From: Pirellulales bacterium
GTDB lineage: Bacteria > Planctomycetota > Planctomycetia > Pirellulales > DATAWG01
Direction: 5' to 3'
Assembly (NCBI GenBank): GCA_036267355.1
Contig: DATAWG010000122.1
Location: 13,671-77,670 of the forward strand
Length of the DNA stretch: 64,000 nt
Every line of letters begins with the position of its first letter. Position 1 is the stretch's first letter. The position numbers were made by a program, and so were the translations under genes. Positions 38,865 through 44,857 of this stretch are shown one piece after another. Under the pieces are notes generated by a model. The model was not told the DNA's origin. It saw nothing but the letters and a program-made list of their open reading frames with translations, and did not search any database.

Positions 38865-40154
38865 ATGGACGCAGCCGCTACACAACTCGATCGCCCGCAG
38901 TTGCCGCCGGTGCTGACGGTTTCGGCTCTCACGCTTTTGATCAAGGAGGTCGTCGAAGGGAGTTTTCCGCTGGTCTGGGTCAGCGGCGAAATTTCCAATT
39001 TCTCGCGCCCGCAATCCGGACACTGCTATCTCACGCTCAAAGACGATCAGGCCCAGATCCGGGCCGTCATTTGGCGCGGCACTGCCGCCACGATCCGCTG
39101 CGATTTGCACGATGGGCTCGAAGTGATCTGCCGCGGGCATTTGGACCTCTATGCCCCCCGCGGCAGCTACCAGCTTGTCGTCGACGAGCTGCAGCCGAAG
39201 GGGCTCGGAGCACTGGAGCAGGCGCTGCGCCGGCTGCGAGAAAAGCTGGCGGCAGAAGGGCTTTTTGAGCGGGGCCGAAAGCGGCCAATTCCCGCCTTTC
39301 CACGCCGCATCGCCGTTGTCACTAGCCCCACCGGCGCCGCGATCCGCGATTTTCTGCAAGTGCTCGGCCGCCGCTGGCGAGGCTGCGATGTGCTGGTCGT
39401 GCCCGTGCGCGTGCAAGGAGTCGGATCGGCCGACGAAATCGCGCGGGCGATCGCGACCGTGAATCGGCTGCTGACGCCCATCGACGTGCTCGTCGTGGCT
39501 CGCGGCGGCGGGAGTTTGGAAGACCTGTGGGCGTTTAACGAAGAAGCGGTGGTGCGGGCGATCGCTGGCTCGCGGATTCCGGTCGTGTCGGGCGTGGGGC
39601 ATGAAATCGATGTCACCTTGGCCGATTTGGTGGCCGACCTGCGGGCGCTGACGCCCAGTGAGGCCGCCGAGCGCGTCGTGCCGGCGATCGACGACATTCG
39701 GGCCAAGCTTCGCTCTCGGCAACAGCAAATGGTCGCCGCGCTGCGCAATCGCGTCGGCAATGAGCGCCGGCGGCTCGAATCGCTCGCCGATCGGCGTGTC
39801 GTGCGGAAGCCGTTTGACCGCTTGCACGAATTGGGGCAACAATTGGACCAGTGGTCGGCGCGGTCCGAACGAGCCATCCGGCAGCGTTTGGCACAAGCCC
39901 GGCAATGCGCGACGGGAATGTCGGCGCGGCTGGAATCGCTCAGTCCACTTGGAGTGTTATCGCGCGGTTACACATTGACGACGCGGCTCGATGGCCGGCT
40001 GATCGCCGCCAGCGAGGAATTGTCGGTGGGGGATCAAATTCAGACTCGTTTCGCCCGCGGGCAGGTGATCAGCCGGGTCGAAAGCGTCGGAAATGCGGAC
40101 GGCGCGGGCGCCGCAACGGCGGATTCGCAAGATTGGCAAAATAGCAAGAGTTGA
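38865..40154 (+). CDS. xseA: Exodeoxyribonuclease VII large subunit
   Basis: LTVSALTLLIKEVVEGSFPLVWVSGEISNFSRPQSGHCYLTLKDDQAQIRAVIW (OB fold)...IAVVTSPTGAAIRDFL...VVARGGGSLEDLWAFNEE...PVVSGVGHEID.TLADLVAD.RA.TPS. Confidence 0.9.
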   Translation: MDAAATQLDRPQLPPVLTVSALTLLIKEVVEGSFPLVWVSGEISNFSRPQSGHCYLTLKDDQAQIRAVIWRGTAATIRCDLHDGLEVICRGHLDLYAPRGSYQLVVDELQPKGLGALEQALRRLREKLAAEGLFERGRKRPIPAFPRRIAVVTSPTGAAIRDFLQVLGRRWRGCDVLVVPVRVQGVGSADEIARAIATVNRLLTPIDVLVVARGGGSLEDLWAFNEEAVVRAIAGSRIPVVSGVGHEIDVTLADLVADLRALTPSEAAERVVPAIDDIRAKLRSRQQQMVAALRNRVGNERRRLESLADRRVVRKPFDRLHELGQQLDQWSARSERAIRQRLAQARQCATGMSARLESLSPLGVLSRGYTLTTRLDGRLIAASEELSVGDQIQTRFARGQVISRVESVGNADGAGAATADSQDWQNSKS

Positions 40155-40156
40155 AC

Positions 40157-40663
40157 ATGACAACTGACGACGAACAGCTTGCCGCAACAGCGGCCCCGCC
40201 AACCGCTCCGCCCGATTTTGAGAGCGCCCTCGCTCGGATGGAGGCGATCGTTTACGAATTGGAAGAGGGCCGGGTTGGATTGGCCGAAGCACTCGCCCGC
40301 TATGAAGAGGGGGTAGGTCTGTTGCGACAGTGCTTTGCACTCCTGGAAACGGCCGAACGGCGGATCGAACTGCTTACGGGCGTCGATGCGGCCGGTAATC
40401 CCGTGGTCGAGCCCTACGACGACACGGCGTCGGCCGATCAAGCCGAGCAAGGCACTCGCCGCAGCCGGCAGCGCAGCGCCGGATCGTCAAAGCCGGCCAA
40501 GGCTTCGCGGGCTCCGGCGCAGCAGGCCGCAGCCTCGCAGGCCATCGAAACACCTTCGGCAACGGATTCATCGATTCCACCCGAGCAATCGTCCCGCAGC
40601 GCGTGCGATCCCGACGCGCCGCCCGGCCCCAGCAAGATAGACTCGCCCGGCCGGCTGTTTTAG
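40157..40663 (+). CDS. xseB: Exodeoxyribonuclease VII small subunit with a long low-complexity C-terminal tail
   Basis: FESALARMEAIVYELEEGRVGLAEALARYEEGVGLLRQCFALLETAERRIELL. The track start is TTG at 40151 (overlapping the xseA stop); an in-frame ATG is at 40157. Confidence 0.85.
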   Translation: MTTDDEQLAATAAPPTAPPDFESALARMEAIVYELEEGRVGLAEALARYEEGVGLLRQCFALLETAERRIELLTGVDAAGNPVVEPYDDTASADQAEQGTRRSRQRSAGSSKPAKASRAPAQQAAASQAIETPSATDSSIPPEQSSRSACDPDAPPGPSKIDSPGRLF

Positions 40664-40681
40664 AATGGAAAATACGATTGG

Positions 40682-41035
40682 ATGCCCAACCTATTTCATT
40701 ACACAGATAGGCGCGGCTGGAATGGGATCCGGGCTCACTCGGCGTGGCGATTCCGGGCGAGCCAACCGAGGGCATCCTGGTGCCCATGCGGCGCGTGTTT
40801 TACGGGGATCGAACCGAGCGCGGCAAACCTACGAACATTAGCCATGCGGATTCGTGTGCCGAAGTCCAAGCTGCGTTATGTGTTTTGGTTCGTTGGAACC
40901 GAGGGACTAGCACCTGTCGAAAATCGCCGCGGGCGCGACAACCAATGCTACTACAGCCCAACGGATTATTCGGTTTCGGGGGAGCGGCAGTGGCGCACCG
41001 GCACTTTTGCCGAGTTGCAAGGAGACTTTGGATGA
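40682..41035 (+). CDS. Small protein A of the three-gene cassette (117 aa); tentative HYD1-type ADP-ribosyltransferase-like N-terminus
   Basis: MPNLFHYTDRRGWNGIRAHS...CGACFTGIEPS...KLRYVFWFVG resembles the (L/F)(Y/H)HYT...G.Y.T...yvf pattern of Tox-ART-HYD1 proteins, with the expected Tyr replaced by Cys. Its stop overlaps the next ATG (ATGA at 41032-41035). Confidence 0.5.
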   Translation: MPNLFHYTDRRGWNGIRAHSAWRFRASQPRASWCPCGACFTGIEPSAANLRTLAMRIRVPKSKLRYVFWFVGTEGLAPVENRRGRDNQCYYSPTDYSVSGERQWRTGTFAELQGDFG

Positions 41036-41418
41036 TTGGCGGAATCGACCTAGAGCTACCGACATGGGCTGGCGATTCTACGCTTGAACGCGCTGTTGAA
41101 GCCACCCGGCAGCTTTGGCCAGATGCCGTATTCCAGGAGGTGCTGACGGGTGATCGTTACGACACGTTCGACCAGATGCCATTTGGCGGGAAGAGACAAA
41201 TTTTCGTTTACAGAGACGTGAAGGCGGCTGATCGATGGGAGGCGATGGGTGCGGTCCCATCCTTATATAATACGATGGTTCATTTAATTACCGACCCTGG
41301 ATTCATAACGATTGTCGTCGACGAGGAAAATGAGTTCACGCGGCAAATGATCAATGCGATCTCCACTGCTCTTCGCGACGACCTTTTTTGCGCAGTTGCG
41401 CTCGCGGAGGCAGCATGA
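41032..41418 (+). CDS. Small protein B of the three-gene cassette (128 aa), unknown function
   Basis: Internal ATG (MIGGIDLELPTW) of track ORF 40744..41418; the upstream part of that ORF looks non-coding. ATGA coupling at both ends. Confidence 0.5.
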   Translation: MIGGIDLELPTWAGDSTLERAVEATRQLWPDAVFQEVLTGDRYDTFDQMPFGGKRQIFVYRDVKAADRWEAMGAVPSLYNTMVHLITDPGFITIVVDEENEFTRQMINAISTALRDDLFCAVALAEAA

Positions 41419-41912
41419 ACGCGCCGACCGCACTCACGCTGGAAGACGCCATCCGAAGGTCAGGCGAGGGCTGGATCATCGACTCGTTTGCCCCGAAAGG
41501 GTCCGGCTACAACTACGTTCTTGGGACGCTACAAAGGGTTAGCGAGCTTGCGACTTCACGATTGGGGACGTCCGCGCCCGATCTCTCGCCGCAGGCAGTC
41601 GTTGATGAATTCGAGCGTAATCCTTCCCGGGTGCGTGGGTTCTTCCAGATTCTCGGCGGCTCCAGAACTCCCAAAATGCTACTCATGGTTTGGCGAGTCA
41701 TGCAAGGCATGGAGATCGACGAAGTCGAATTGAATTATCGACGGCAGAAGCAATTTCACGTGCGAATTGTGCTGGTGTCGCCCCACGGGGAGGAAGACGT
41801 GCCCTATGAATCGTCCGACATCAATGACTTCGCGATTTTTTGGCACATCGGCACATTGCAAATCAACAATCGACCTGTCTTCGACGGTTTCTATCCCTTG
41901 CGGGTGTCTTAA
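41415..41912 (+). CDS. Small protein C of the three-gene cassette (165 aa), unknown function
   Basis: Internal ATG (MNAPTALTLEDAI) of track ORF 41388..41912. ATGA overlap at 41415-41418. Confidence 0.5.
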   Translation: MNAPTALTLEDAIRRSGEGWIIDSFAPKGSGYNYVLGTLQRVSELATSRLGTSAPDLSPQAVVDEFERNPSRVRGFFQILGGSRTPKMLLMVWRVMQGMEIDEVELNYRRQKQFHVRIVLVSPHGEEDVPYESSDINDFAIFWHIGTLQINNRPVFDGFYPLRVS

Positions 41913-41966
41913 CGAGCGGGTGGAGCGTTTTCTCGATGGAAGGTCGGCGGCGAGAGGGGGCGTTGT

Positions 41967-42920
41967 TTGAAGTTTTCCACAGCGCAATCCACCGCTCTCT
42001 CGCTCCCGTTCGCGCTCGCTGAATCGCGGCGGCGGATCGATGCGGCTCTCGATCAATATAGCCGGTTCGATGCCGGCTGCCCCGAACGGCTTGGCGAAGC
42101 GATCCGCTATTGTCTGTTGGCTCCCGGCAAGCGGCTGCGGCCGACGCTCGTGTTATGGGCGGCAGAGGCTTGCGGTTGCAGTGTGGAGGCAGCACTGCCG
42201 GCCGCGTGCGCGGTGGAAATGGTTCACACCTATTCGCTCGTGCACGACGATTTGCCGGCCATGGACGACGACGATCTCCGTCGAGGACGTGCCACATGCC
42301 ACAAAGTCTACGGCGAGGCCAACGCGATTCTGGTCGGCGACGCGCTACAAGCCCTGGCGTTCGAAGTGCTCGCGGCGGGCATTCGCCCCGCGGAGAAGGC
42401 CGTCGCTTGCATCGCGACGTTGGCCCATGCCGCCGGGGCCACCGCCCTGGTCGGCGGGCAGGCCGACGATCTGGCCCGGCAAACGGCGGAAAACGATCTG
42501 CCGCCGCGAGATCGGCCGCAGCGAGATCGGCCCTCGCTCGATCTGGCCGCGCTGGAATCGATCCACGAGCGGAAAACCGGCGCGATGTTTCACGCCTCGC
42601 TGCGATTGGGCGGATTGATCGCCGCGGCCGATCCGCGGCGGCAGGCAGCCCTGGAAGCATTCGGCCGGAAGCTCGGCCTGGCCTTTCAAATCATCGACGA
42701 TCTTCTCGACGTCGAAGGGGAAGAAGCGGCGGTGGGCAAGCGGCTCGGCAAAGACTCGAACCGCGGAAAGCTGACATTTCCGGCCGTGTTGGGCCTCGAC
42801 GAAAGCCGGCGCTACGCCCGGCAGACGATCGACGAAGCGGTCGCCGCTCTCGCGCCGCTCGCGCCGGCCGACGAGCGATTGGCAAGCATGGCACGATTCG
42901 TCCTGGAAAGGAATCAATGA
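41967..42920 (+). CDS. ispA: Polyprenyl (farnesyl/geranylgeranyl) diphosphate synthase
   Basis: First DDxxD motif in VHTYSLVHDDLPAMDDDDLRRGRATCHKVYGE. Second motif in GLAFQIIDDLLDV. TTG start (no upstream ATG). Confidence 0.85.
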   Translation: MKFSTAQSTALSLPFALAESRRRIDAALDQYSRFDAGCPERLGEAIRYCLLAPGKRLRPTLVLWAAEACGCSVEAALPAACAVEMVHTYSLVHDDLPAMDDDDLRRGRATCHKVYGEANAILVGDALQALAFEVLAAGIRPAEKAVACIATLAHAAGATALVGGQADDLARQTAENDLPPRDRPQRDRPSLDLAALESIHERKTGAMFHASLRLGGLIAAADPRRQAALEAFGRKLGLAFQIIDDLLDVEGEEAAVGKRLGKDSNRGKLTFPAVLGLDESRRYARQTIDEAVAALAPLAPADERLASMARFVLERNQ

Positions 42921-44857
42921 TCATGGCGGACGAGTTGCTTGCGACGATTCAATCTCCCGCCGATTTGCAGCGGCTTTCGCTTGCACAATTGCAGCAATTG
43001 GCCGCGGAAATGCGCGAGGCGCTTTGCAAGGTGGTCGCCGATCGGACCGCTCATTTCGCATCGAATCTGGGCGTCGTCGAGCTTTGCCTGGCCTTGCACA
43101 CGACGTTCGATTTCCGCCGCGACCGCCTGATCTGGGATACCGGGCATCAAATTTATCCGCACAAACTGATCACCGGCCGCTATTCCCATTTCGCCACCAT
43201 TCGCACGCGCGGCGGACTGATGGGCTATCCCAATCCGCACGAGAGCCCCTACGACCTGTTTATGACCGGCCACGCCGGTTGCAGTGTGTCGACCGTGCTC
43301 GGGCTGCATAGCGGCGACGAATTGCTCGGCGAGGCCGACCGGCACGCCGTTGCCGTCATTGGCGACGGTGCGTTGCCGAGCGGAATCGTGTTCGAAGCGT
43401 TGAACAACGCCGGGGGCAAGAAGCCCGCCAAGCTGTTGGTCGTGTTGAACGACAACAAGATGTCGATCTGCCCGCGCGTCGGCGGCCTGGCCGATTATCT
43501 CGATCGCTTGCGGATGAATCGCTTTTACACCGGCTTGAAACACGAAGTGGCCGGGTTACTCGATCGCTTGCCGTTGATCGGCGACAGAATCGAACGCTTG
43601 CTGTCGCTCATCAAAGACTCGATCAAGGCCGGGATGCATGGCGGAATGCACGGCGGGATGTTGTTCGAAGAATTGAATTTCCGCTATGTCGGACCGGTCG
43701 ACGGCCATAGCATTCCGCAGTTGCGCAAGTATTTGAAACTGGCCAAGGACGCCGACGGGCCGGTGCTGCTGCACGTCGTGACGGAGAAGGGGCATGGCTT
43801 CGAGCCGGCGGAAGCCGATCCGGTCTATTTCCACACGCCCGCGCCATTCGCCTGCGGCGGCGAAGCCGTGCTGCCGATCCAATCGAGTTCCTCACGCGCC
43901 TACACCGACGTTGCCAGCCAAAGCATCTCCGACCAGATGCATCGGAATCCGCGCGTCACGGTGCTCACCGCGGCGATGTGCCAAGGCAACAAACTCGAGC
44001 CGATCCGCGCAGCGTTTCCGGACCGGTTTTTCGACACCGGCATTTGCGAATCGCACGCGGTCGCGTTCGCCGCCGGACAAGCCAAGGCCGGCTTGCGGCC
44101 GATCGTCGACATTTACAGCACATTCTTGCAGCGCAGTTTCGATCAGATCTTTCAGGAAGTCGCGCTGCAGAATTTGCCGGTCACGTTCATGCTCGATCGA
44201 GCCGGCCTGACGGGGCCCGATGGGCCGACGCATCACGGCGCTTTCGACATCGGCTACATGCGATTATTCCCCAACCTGACCGTGATGGCCCCCGGCGACG
44301 AGGACGACTTGCGCGAGATGCTCGAATTCGCTCTTGCGCACGACGGGCCTGCGTCGATCCGCTATCCGAAGGCGACGGCCGAGAAGTGCAACCGGCAACG
44401 AACCGCGGTTGAATTCGGCCGAGCCGAAGTCATCGATTGGGGGACCGACGGCTTGCTGATCGCGTGCGGCACGCTACTGGGAAGCTGCATCAAGGCTGCC
44501 GCACAGTTGCGCGACGAAGGGCTCGATATCGGCGTCGTCAACGCTCGATTCATCAAGCCGCTCGACCGGGAAACCATCCTGCGGGCCATCGAGACTGCGC
44601 CGCTCGTCGTGACAGTCGAAGAAGGAGCCCTCATGACCGGCTTCGGCAGCGCCGTGCTGGAAGCCGCCGCGGATGCGGGCTTGAACACCGCGCACATCCG
44701 CCGCCTCGGCATTCCCGACCGATTTGTCGAGCACGGCGATCGGGCCGAACTGTTGGCCGAACTCGGCCTCGACGCGGCCGGAATCGCAAATTGCTGCCGT
44801 CAACTGGCCGACGACCTTGGGCTCTGCAAAGACGCCAATCGCCGCCGCGTGAGTTGA
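42917..44857 (+). CDS. dxs: 1-deoxy-D-xylulose-5-phosphate synthase
   Basis: Internal ATG (MIMADELLATIQSPADL) overlaps the ispA stop (ATGA at 42917-42920). DTGHQIYPHKLITGR, GHAGCSVSTVLG, GDGALPSGIVFEALN, ICESHAVAFAAG, LDRAGLTGPDGPTHHGAFD. Confidence 0.95.
   Translation: MIMADELLATIQSPADLQRLSLAQLQQLAAEMREALCKVVADRTAHFASNLGVVELCLALHTTFDFRRDRLIWDTGHQIYPHKLITGRYSHFATIRTRGGLMGYPNPHESPYDLFMTGHAGCSVSTVLGLHSGDELLGEADRHAVAVIGDGALPSGIVFEALNNAGGKKPAKLLVVLNDNKMSICPRVGGLADYLDRLRMNRFYTGLKHEVAGLLDRLPLIGDRIERLLSLIKDSIKAGMHGGMHGGMLFEELNFRYVGPVDGHSIPQLRKYLKLAKDADGPVLLHVVTEKGHGFEPAEADPVYFHTPAPFACGGEAVLPIQSSSSRAYTDVASQSISDQMHRNPRVTVLTAAMCQGNKLEPIRAAFPDRFFDTGICESHAVAFAAGQAKAGLRPIVDIYSTFLQRSFDQIFQEVALQNLPVTFMLDRAGLTGPDGPTHHGAFDIGYMRLFPNLTVMAPGDEDDLREMLEFALAHDGPASIRYPKATAEKCNRQRTAVEFGRAEVIDWGTDGLLIACGTLLGSCIKAAAQLRDEGLDIGVVNARFIKPLDRETILRAIETAPLVVTVEEGALMTGFGSAVLEAAADAGLNTAHIRRLGIPDRFVEHGDRAELLAELGLDAAGIANCCRQLADDLGLCKDANRRRVS

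Follow-up and report, generated by a model that had tools for sequence, protein, structure and literature searches.

The closest described relatives of the element analysed here, a cassette of three small genes (A, B and C) lying between xseB and ispA in a 64,000-nucleotide stretch of soil-metagenome DNA from a Pirellulales bacterium (hereafter the window, by which we mean that whole stretch), are toxins with a Tox-ART-HYD1 domain, a kind of ADP-ribosyltransferase (ART) domain whose published signature comprises H, [RK], [FY] and [DE] residues (PMC3482391). Tre23 of Photorhabdus laumondii ADP-ribosylates 23S rRNA in an NAD+-dependent manner and is toxic in the cytoplasm unless it is bound by its immunity protein Tri23, which is encoded by the adjacent gene just downstream and blocks the toxin by binding, while substitutions of H8 or Y33 in Tre23 abolish its toxicity (PMC8661411). 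Imm-My6CBD is a known immunity family of HYD1 toxins (PMC3482391). In the CmdTAC system of E. coli ECOR22, a toxin, an antitoxin and a SecB-like chaperone are encoded by one operon; CmdT modifies mRNA, the system aborts T4 infection, and the Y41A substitution in CmdT abolishes the defence (PMC11618068). DarTG and Tre1-Tri1 are two-gene systems in which the toxin gene comes first and the toxin is countered by an enzyme that removes ADP-ribose.

As the first-pass annotation of the window had described, the cassette consists of three open reading frames (ORFs) of 117, 128 and 165 amino acids (aa) that follow each other on the + strand and are joined by ATGA overlaps at 41032-41035 and 41415-41418. 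The lower GC content that it had noticed was also borne out (0.53-0.585 in the cassette versus 0.62-0.66 in the flanking genes), and a similar shift is seen at third codon positions (GC3; 0.56-0.66 versus 0.69-0.78). The features of the cassette are:

40682..41035, + strand: gene A, a stand-alone Tox-ART-HYD1-like domain of 117 aa (ORF; PF15633 match; motif alignment)
40796..40798, + strand: TGT codon for Cys39 of A at the motif Tyr position (Y39C), one base from TAT
41032..41035, + strand: ATGA overlap between the A stop and the B start (translational coupling; from the sequence)
41032..41418, + strand: gene B, 128 aa, of a family without characterised member (ORF; compact alpha/beta model)
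41415..41418, + strand: ATGA overlap between the B stop and the C start (from the sequence)
41415..41912, + strand: gene C, 165 aa, of a family without characterised member (ORF; helical N-terminal part and beta-rich C-terminal part in the model)

Judging from its sequence relationships, the best-supported reading of this cassette is a putative toxin accompanied by immunity/antitoxin or accessory proteins, and more precisely a candidate three-component, toxin-antitoxin-like module based on an ADP-ribosyltransferase whose two partners belong to families without known relatives.

Protein A and the Tox-ART-HYD1 family

A of the window aligns with PF15633 (Tox-ART-HYD1) over profile positions 1-89 of 97, with 17 bits and an E of 0.0093. 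The likeness to a HYD1-type ART that had been noticed by eye in this one protein proved to extend to its whole family, since all 13 of the 13 members of our first A alignment match PF15633 end to end (best E 2e-5) and A of locus L037 reaches 22.6 bits (L-numbers are the labels of the relatives and homologous loci that were compared with the window). A profile of the A family made from 29 sequences was searched against 1.84 billion representatives, and it retrieved 187 representative clusters, mostly of stand-alone proteins of 105-140 aa. Among the matches listed, about a dozen are longer proteins (220-782 aa) with the domain at their very C-terminus, retrieved at E values of 5e-21 to 2e-7. Ten of these longer proteins were scanned: RHS repeats and/or an RHS core were found in 8, the PF15633 cut-off was passed by 4 (35.9, 30.1, 29.2 and 27.2 bits), 2 of which have an RHS core, and four more of the 10 match PF15633 below the cut-off.

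Three motifs could be aligned between the stand-alone A proteins and these Rhs domains, namely [FY]HYTD, G[AV]Y[FV]T and D[YL]x[VI], and they read FH6YTD, GAC39FT and D95-Y-x-V in the window copy. Together, the family motifs correspond to the H / aromatic / acidic signature published for Tox-ART-HYD1 (PMC3482391), which the window copy with its Cys39 matches incompletely. H6 and D95 are invariant in the A family, and the aromatic position is a Tyr in 30 of the 31 distinct A sequences as well as in the Rhs domains. By these shared motifs, H6 and Y39 of the family appear to match the H and Y conserved in the HYD1 domains of Rhs proteins, the kind to which Tre23 belongs, and Y39 would correspond to Y33 of Tre23. 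Sequence-profile searches gave no PDB match of A below an E of 0.18, and no Pfam match of A to Arr-type families was found at E<=1.

A thus looks like a free-standing relative of a toxin domain that is normally delivered by Rhs proteins and acts in the cytoplasm, without the delivery part. The Tox-ART-HYD1 domain is shared over its full length, including alignable H, Y and D motifs, and A differs from the Rhs/type VI secretion system (T6SS) toxins in being a free protein of 117 aa accompanied by two partner genes instead of one; the usual layout of such polymorphic toxins, a C-terminal tip on a long protein followed by an immunity gene, is not what we see here. Unlike the described HYD1 toxins, A is also found among housekeeping genes in Planctomycetota, a phylum absent from the list that a 2012 survey gave for the family (PMC3482391).

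Distribution of the module and its partner proteins

The A-B-C triad was found in the same order at 29 distinct loci including the window (28 others), this order holding at every locus with enough upstream sequence. The ATGA junction is kept between A and B at 25 of these 29 loci and between B and C at 27 of them, so that the whole family shares this translational coupling. All named triad loci belong to Planctomycetota, and a scan of one genome per species over 185,579 prokaryote species recovered 5 loci only, again all from Planctomycetota (Pirellulales, Planctomycetaceae and Gemmataceae); in metagenomes, the C family comprises 385 clusters. The GC3 of the module is below that of the neighbouring genes in 14 of 14 loci compared, as it is in the window.

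The neighbours vary from locus to locus and include genes for a sigma-54 activator, an extracytoplasmic function (ECF) sigma factor, a major facilitator superfamily (MFS) transporter, FabH, an acyl-CoA ligase, an SNF2 helicase, a prephenate dehydrogenase, PSD/HXXSHH pairs, a beta-lactamase-fold protein and an aldo-keto reductase. No integrase, transposase, Rhs, T6SS or recognisable defence gene was found among the neighbours at the loci examined, and no PAAR, VgrG or other delivery gene adjoins any of them. Homologues had been imagined in defence islands or polymorphic toxin loci, and this expectation did not hold, since the examined loci have housekeeping neighbours. Carriage on plasmids or phages was considered and rejected, as C has no match in the plasmid, phage and viral-contig collections PLSDB, INPHARED and IMG/VR. 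Altogether, these comparisons suggest that A, B and C make up a single self-contained module that moves horizontally, is foreign to its hosts and is known only from Planctomycetota.

Two other settings of the cassette were noticed along the way. At three loci (L003:4986-10636, L006:5367-8662 and L015:2360-7925), it lies in the same orientation as its neighbours, with a PSCyt/PSD-domain gene on one side and an HXXSHH (PF07586) gene on the other. Genes of these two kinds usually occur as a neighbouring pair; if this holds here, the site would be a second case of the cassette within a conserved gene pair. At L043:2177-3589, the C frame has no stop and runs in frame into a DUF1559 pilin-like gene, so that the cassette adjoins the start of the next host gene without a spacer; the product has an N_methyl motif from residue 171, followed by SBP_bac_10, and it is either a real fusion or the result of a lost or mis-called stop.

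That B and C carry no recognisable motif, as the first-pass annotation had stated, was confirmed by family, PDB-sequence and fold searches. Neither protein has a consistent match in Pfam, NCBIfam, PADLOC or PHROGs, nor a PDB sequence match below an E of 0.18 in sequence-profile searches. DUF6585 was proposed for B by 4 of 35 B sequences at E>=0.0025 and was rejected as too weak. AlphaFold2 models B as a compact alpha/beta domain with a long terminal helix, ordered to about residue 117 (predicted local distance difference test, pLDDT, 86.6), and C (pLDDT 79.4) as helical in its N-terminal part and beta-rich thereafter; the pLDDT drops below 50 over the ~13 C-terminal residues of C, yet these hold an invariant P-x-F-D-G-F-Y. 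The best Foldseek matches of B and C against PDB and of C against BFVD (E 0.017-0.08, template modelling (TM) score <=0.46) were rejected as non-matches. Neither a SecB chain, nor a macrodomain, nor a myosin-VI cargo-binding domain is among the best 50 PDB matches listed for B or C, and no match of any kind reached E<=0.001; similarly, no match of the Imm-My6CBD or Myosin-VI-CBD type was obtained for B or C in Pfam, NCBIfam or the fold searches. Conservation is highest in C and lowest in B. The invariant residues of B are G4, D6, W29, W69 and G73, and those of C, many of them polar or aromatic, include R94, Y131, S133, H144, F159 and Y160.

History of the cassette between xseB and ispA

In the window, the cassette is embedded in a string of host genes, whose features are:

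38865..40154, + strand: xseA, exonuclease VII large subunit, upstream host gene (ORF; Exonuc_VII_L in the orthologues of L009, L012 and L013, which are 74-87% identical to the window)
40151..40663, + strand: xseB, exonuclease VII small subunit, host gene immediately 5' of the insertion (ORF; orthologues with Exonuc_VII_S)
40661..40666, + strand: TAGAAT overlapping the xseB stop, host-derived (TAAAAT/TAGAAT at the same spot in L009, L011, L012 and L013)
40664..40681, + strand: spacer of 18 nucleotides (nt) between the xseB stop and the A start (same-length spacer in L013)
41913..41966, + strand: spacer of 54 nt between the C stop and the ispA start (from the sequence)
41967..42920, + strand: ispA, polyprenyl diphosphate synthase, host gene 3' of the insertion (PF00348 match)
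42917..44857, + strand: dxs, 1-deoxy-D-xylulose 5-phosphate (DXP) synthase, whose start overlaps the ispA stop by 4 nt (orthologues with DXP_synthase_N/Transket_pyr)

The three genes had been taken for an insertion into an xseB-ispA-dxs operon, and the relatives, of which the named ones are Pirellulales by IspA, bear this out. In 3 of the 4 nearest relatives examined (L009, L011 and L012), xseB directly adjoins ispA with a gap of 46-93 nt, the cassette is absent and the gene order is PSP1 / xseA-xseB-ispA-dxs; their IspA proteins are 78% (L011), 78% (L009) and 72% (L012) identical to that of the window. In the fourth, L010, ispA lacks an xseB neighbour. The full A-B-C cassette is found at the same site in L013/L014, again 18 nt past the xseB stop, and L020 has C directly 5' of ispA-dxs. 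When the flanks of L013 were joined, they matched the empty site of L009, and the extra DNA of L013 corresponds to 'GA' plus the stretch from the A ATG through the C stop. The 18-nt spacer of L013 is itself ~14/18 identical to the empty site of L009 (counted from the printed alignment), indicating that the cassette brings essentially no upstream DNA of its own. Practically all of the cassette is therefore coding, and it has neither an evident promoter nor a mobility gene. A 6-bp repeat, ATGGAA, that flanks the window cassette was rejected as a target-site duplication, since such a repeat is expected by chance in about one case in four (rough estimate) and L013 has no equivalent.

In the IspA tree, carriers and non-carriers are mixed within one clade (support 100/99), with the subgroups {window, L011-empty, P0022} and {L009-empty, L013, L020}. 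The window and L013 are sisters in the B tree (100/99) and in the C tree (96/90), and L020 comes next after these two in the C tree (100/99). The comparison thus points to an old, polymorphic insertion that is present in three lineages and absent from two interleaved ones, rather than being unique to the window genome. The simplest history would be a single insertion in the ancestor of the clade followed by at least two losses; alternatively, the cassette may have spread among relatives via homologous recombination through the conserved flanks.

The TAGAAT hexamer that the first-pass annotation had pointed out is indeed where it was said to be, across the xseB stop and 15 nt ahead of the A ATG. 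It cannot be counted as part of the cassette: since TA[AG]AAT is found at the xseB stop of cassette-free relatives too, it is host sequence and not a cassette promoter. A cassette promoter of the form TAGACT-17-TAGAAT was accordingly rejected, as the hexamer is kept in cassette-free relatives and the promoter-like count in the region is not above that in shuffled sequences. A TAGACT/TGGAC-like hexamer lies 17 nt upstream of TA[AG]AAT in the window (40638-40666) and also in L009, L011, L012 and L013, and this conserved pair, though not above chance alone, might be a clade-wide internal ispA-dxs promoter with the cassette just downstream. The xseB product of the window (170 aa) has a short Exonuc_VII_S core followed by a long, low-complexity tail rich in Pro, Ala, Ser and Gln, and its length is comparable in the relatives (159-167 aa).

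Among the other lineages, A has been lost or broken in three that kept partner genes, and in a fourth A is broken and C deleted. L032, a near-twin of the intact L021, has a nonsense codon directly after D95 of A and intact B and C genes; L038 has an in-frame deletion of A residues ~25-117 that fuses the remaining stub to B; and L016-19 carry C alone, without A or B. In L008, A is broken by frameshifts, C is deleted and B is kept. At the reliable loci, an intact A never occurs without its two partners; the sole apparent exception (L015) is a frameshift-ridden assembly. The solo C of L016 (L016:5379-6510; also L017-L019) is closest to the C of L004 and lies 44 nt 3' of a gene whose 192-aa product resembles a signal peptide at its N-terminus and has ends rich in Lys and Glu.

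The window copy of A has a change of its own. A Cys in place of the expected Tyr had been read from the letters, and it is indeed encoded by TGT at 40796-40798; Cys39 is unique to the window, as all 30 other members have a Tyr. A contig of depth 39 from the source sample matches the window letter for letter, and in contigs X2 and X3 from other samples the codon of Cys39 falls outside the covered part. The terminal branch of the window A (1.4 versus a median of 0.48) is the second longest in its tree, while those of the window B and C are ordinary (0.32 and 0.29). Between the window and L013, identity is 51% for A, 57% for B and 73% for C. Over 325 locus pairs, A identity follows ~0.98 x C identity + 1.5 (residual standard deviation 5.4), and the window-L013 pair falls about 22 points below this trend (residual about -22). 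A and B thus appear to have evolved unusually fast in the lineage residing between xseB and ispA. Considering that Y39C affects the Tyr of the NAD pocket and that A has evolved fast, the putative toxin is probably attenuated or dead here: the window A would be a disarmed or attenuated copy whose partners B and C were retained under constraint.

A 1,625-nt contig of run X2, from a second soil sample, matches positions 40839-41278 of the window and has an unrelated upstream part, with 1,185 nt upstream of the match and a reported loose end of 255 nt. It could come from a strain in which the 5' third of A was replaced, or be an assembly chimera.

Candidate functions of the module

With a confidence somewhat above even, we favour the view that the cassette is a mobile module of Planctomycetota that acts like a tripartite toxin-antitoxin system, possibly in abortive phage defence. 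A would be a minimal H-Y-D (Tox-ART-HYD1) ADP-ribosyltransferase that works in the cytoplasm and depends on NAD+, sharing its domain kind with Rhs/T6SS toxins such as Tre23 that ADP-ribosylate RNA of the translation apparatus. Since it has no delivery domain, it would act in its own cell and would have to be restrained there. B and C, made in fixed proportion through ATGA coupling, would be its neutralising or regulating partners: C may be the main protector, given that it shows the strongest conservation, ends in an invariant tail that escaped confident modelling and persists alone in one lineage, and B may be a second binder or adaptor. The cassette would be transcribed together with the xseAB-ispA-dxs gene string. 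Strict co-occurrence and stop-start coupling with two partners give the module the look of toxin-antitoxin systems, and the repeated inactivation of A with its partners kept is more easily understood for a harmful gene than for a useful enzyme. The layout of the genes, the homology of A, the distribution of the module, its presence/absence polymorphism as an insertion, its composition and its decay pattern are direct observations; we infer the toxicity of A, its neutralisation by B and C, an RNA target, co-transcription and the loss of activity by Y39C from such sequence comparisons.

CmdTAC is the closest match for how the cassette may work, the likeness being one of design, with A and CmdT likened by motif and layout. 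Both are three-gene operons led by a small H-Y-[EDQ] ART, with a motif Tyr that is essential in CmdT and the order toxin-antitoxin-third protein that we propose here; in the cassette, gene order and coupling are conserved and the H-Y-D residues are present at the level of the family. The partners differ: B is a compact and confidently modelled alpha/beta protein, in contrast to CmdA with its two helices and long disordered chaperone-addiction tail, and C, unlike the SecB-like CmdC, shows no SecB in its best 50 listed fold matches and no Pfam or NCBIfam SecB hit, so that a role of C as a SecB-like chaperone was rejected. PADLOC gave no hit for A, B or C. DarTG and Tre1-Tri1 share with the cassette a toxin gene in first place and have a highly conserved partner that protects alone, which would fit C; they differ in being two-gene systems with an ADP-ribose-removing enzyme, and none of the three cassette proteins matched DUF4433, a macrodomain or an ADP-ribosylglycohydrolase (Pfam, NCBIfam and PADLOC, E<=1).

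Several observations weigh against this view. The window A scores below the Pfam gathering score (17 versus 25 bits). B and C show no likeness to a known antitoxin, immunity protein, chaperone or ADP-ribose hydrolase in the libraries and folds searched, and their putative roles are assigned solely on the basis of where the genes lie, how conserved they are and how the module decays. Conservation is higher in C than in A, which is unusual for an antitoxin, and C rather than A could be the functional core. L008, with its deleted C, fits poorly with an indispensable C, although its frameshifts are possibly errors of a long-read assembly. The neighbourhoods of the cassette are not defence islands, and PADLOC gave no hit. 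The stretch was also looked for in RNA runs, none of which contains it. Lastly, the total number of deviations at conserved columns does not make the window copy an outlier.

The alternative that survives best, although we consider it unlikely, is a non-toxic modifying or regulatory system, in which A would modify a specific host protein, RNA or small molecule as Arr and DraT do, with B and C as subunits that present the substrate or reverse the reaction, and whose persistence would reflect a niche benefit and not addiction or defence. Arr is a minimal H-Y-D enzyme that inactivates rifamycins. Such a role would suit the enzyme-like C, the most conserved protein with its many invariant polar and aromatic residues, its persistence alone in L016-19, the location of the module among housekeeping genes instead of defence or toxin loci, and the lack of matches of B and C to antitoxin families. 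It is harder to reconcile with the nearest recognisable relatives of A, which are Rhs-borne toxin domains and not Arr or DraT (no Arr-type Pfam hit at E<=1), with a rare and patchy distribution and a foreign composition, with the alternating presence and absence among close relatives, or with the repeated inactivation of A while partner genes stay.

We regard as quite unlikely that the cassette is simply a decaying relic without present function in this genome, with A dead through Y39C and with B (R23E) and C (R143W) drifting, and that it persists only because its removal from the xseAB-ispA-dxs gene string is rarely neutral. Each of the three window proteins does deviate once at a position that at least 95% of members share, which for B is E23 (R in 95%) and for C is W143 (R in 98%); the terminal branch of A is very long, and sister lineages lost the cassette cleanly. 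General decay is nevertheless not supported, since the count of deviations at conserved columns is ordinary and other apparently intact copies show 1-3 of them. All three ORFs are intact and both ATGA junctions are kept, B and C have ordinary branches (0.32 and 0.29) and group firmly with L013, and C, 73% identical to that of L013 when IspA is 79-80% identical, is not diverging much faster than the flanking gene.

Least probable of all is a detached polymorphic-toxin cassette, be it a toxin tip kept in reserve, with B and C as its immunity genes, that could recombine into an Rhs gene or another delivery gene, or an orphan remnant that protects against the Rhs-HYD1 toxins of competitors, since the homology of A to Rhs C-terminal HYD1 domains, the stand-alone toxin/immunity cassettes known from polymorphic toxin loci (PMC3482391) and the likeness of the solo C of L016-19 to an orphan immunity gene are opposed by the lack of any Rhs, PAAR, VgrG or other delivery gene beside the examined loci, by an A that is a complete ORF with its own start, coupled to B in 25 of 29 loci, and not a 5'-truncated tip, by the constant presence of two partner genes instead of one, and by the failure of B and C to match the known HYD1 immunity family Imm-My6CBD.

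Returning to the tripartite toxin-antitoxin-like module, it is striking that a cassette without evident promoter or mobility gene sits in essential-gene operons, and disappears from them, so cleanly. One speculative and rather doubtful idea is that it represents a class of promoterless, mobility-gene-free 'operon hitch-hikers' that insert and excise from start to stop codon, as could be read from the xseB/ispA site, the site between PSD-domain and HXXSHH genes and the in-frame DUF1559 fusion of L043; its two neutralisers would have unseen folds, and C would be a self-sufficient ART inhibitor that acts enzymatically or by plugging with its tail.

The intact copies, the Y39C copy of the window, the nonsense codon, the internal deletion and the solo C make up a natural disarming series. 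If A is active and held in check by B and C, the module would be a new tripartite toxin-antitoxin or defence family with two components that have no known relatives, and the Rhs-type HYD1 domain would join the ARTs of self-directed systems, such as DarT and CmdT. It would then also offer a tractable candidate in Planctomycetota, a phylum whose defence and addiction systems are poorly charted.

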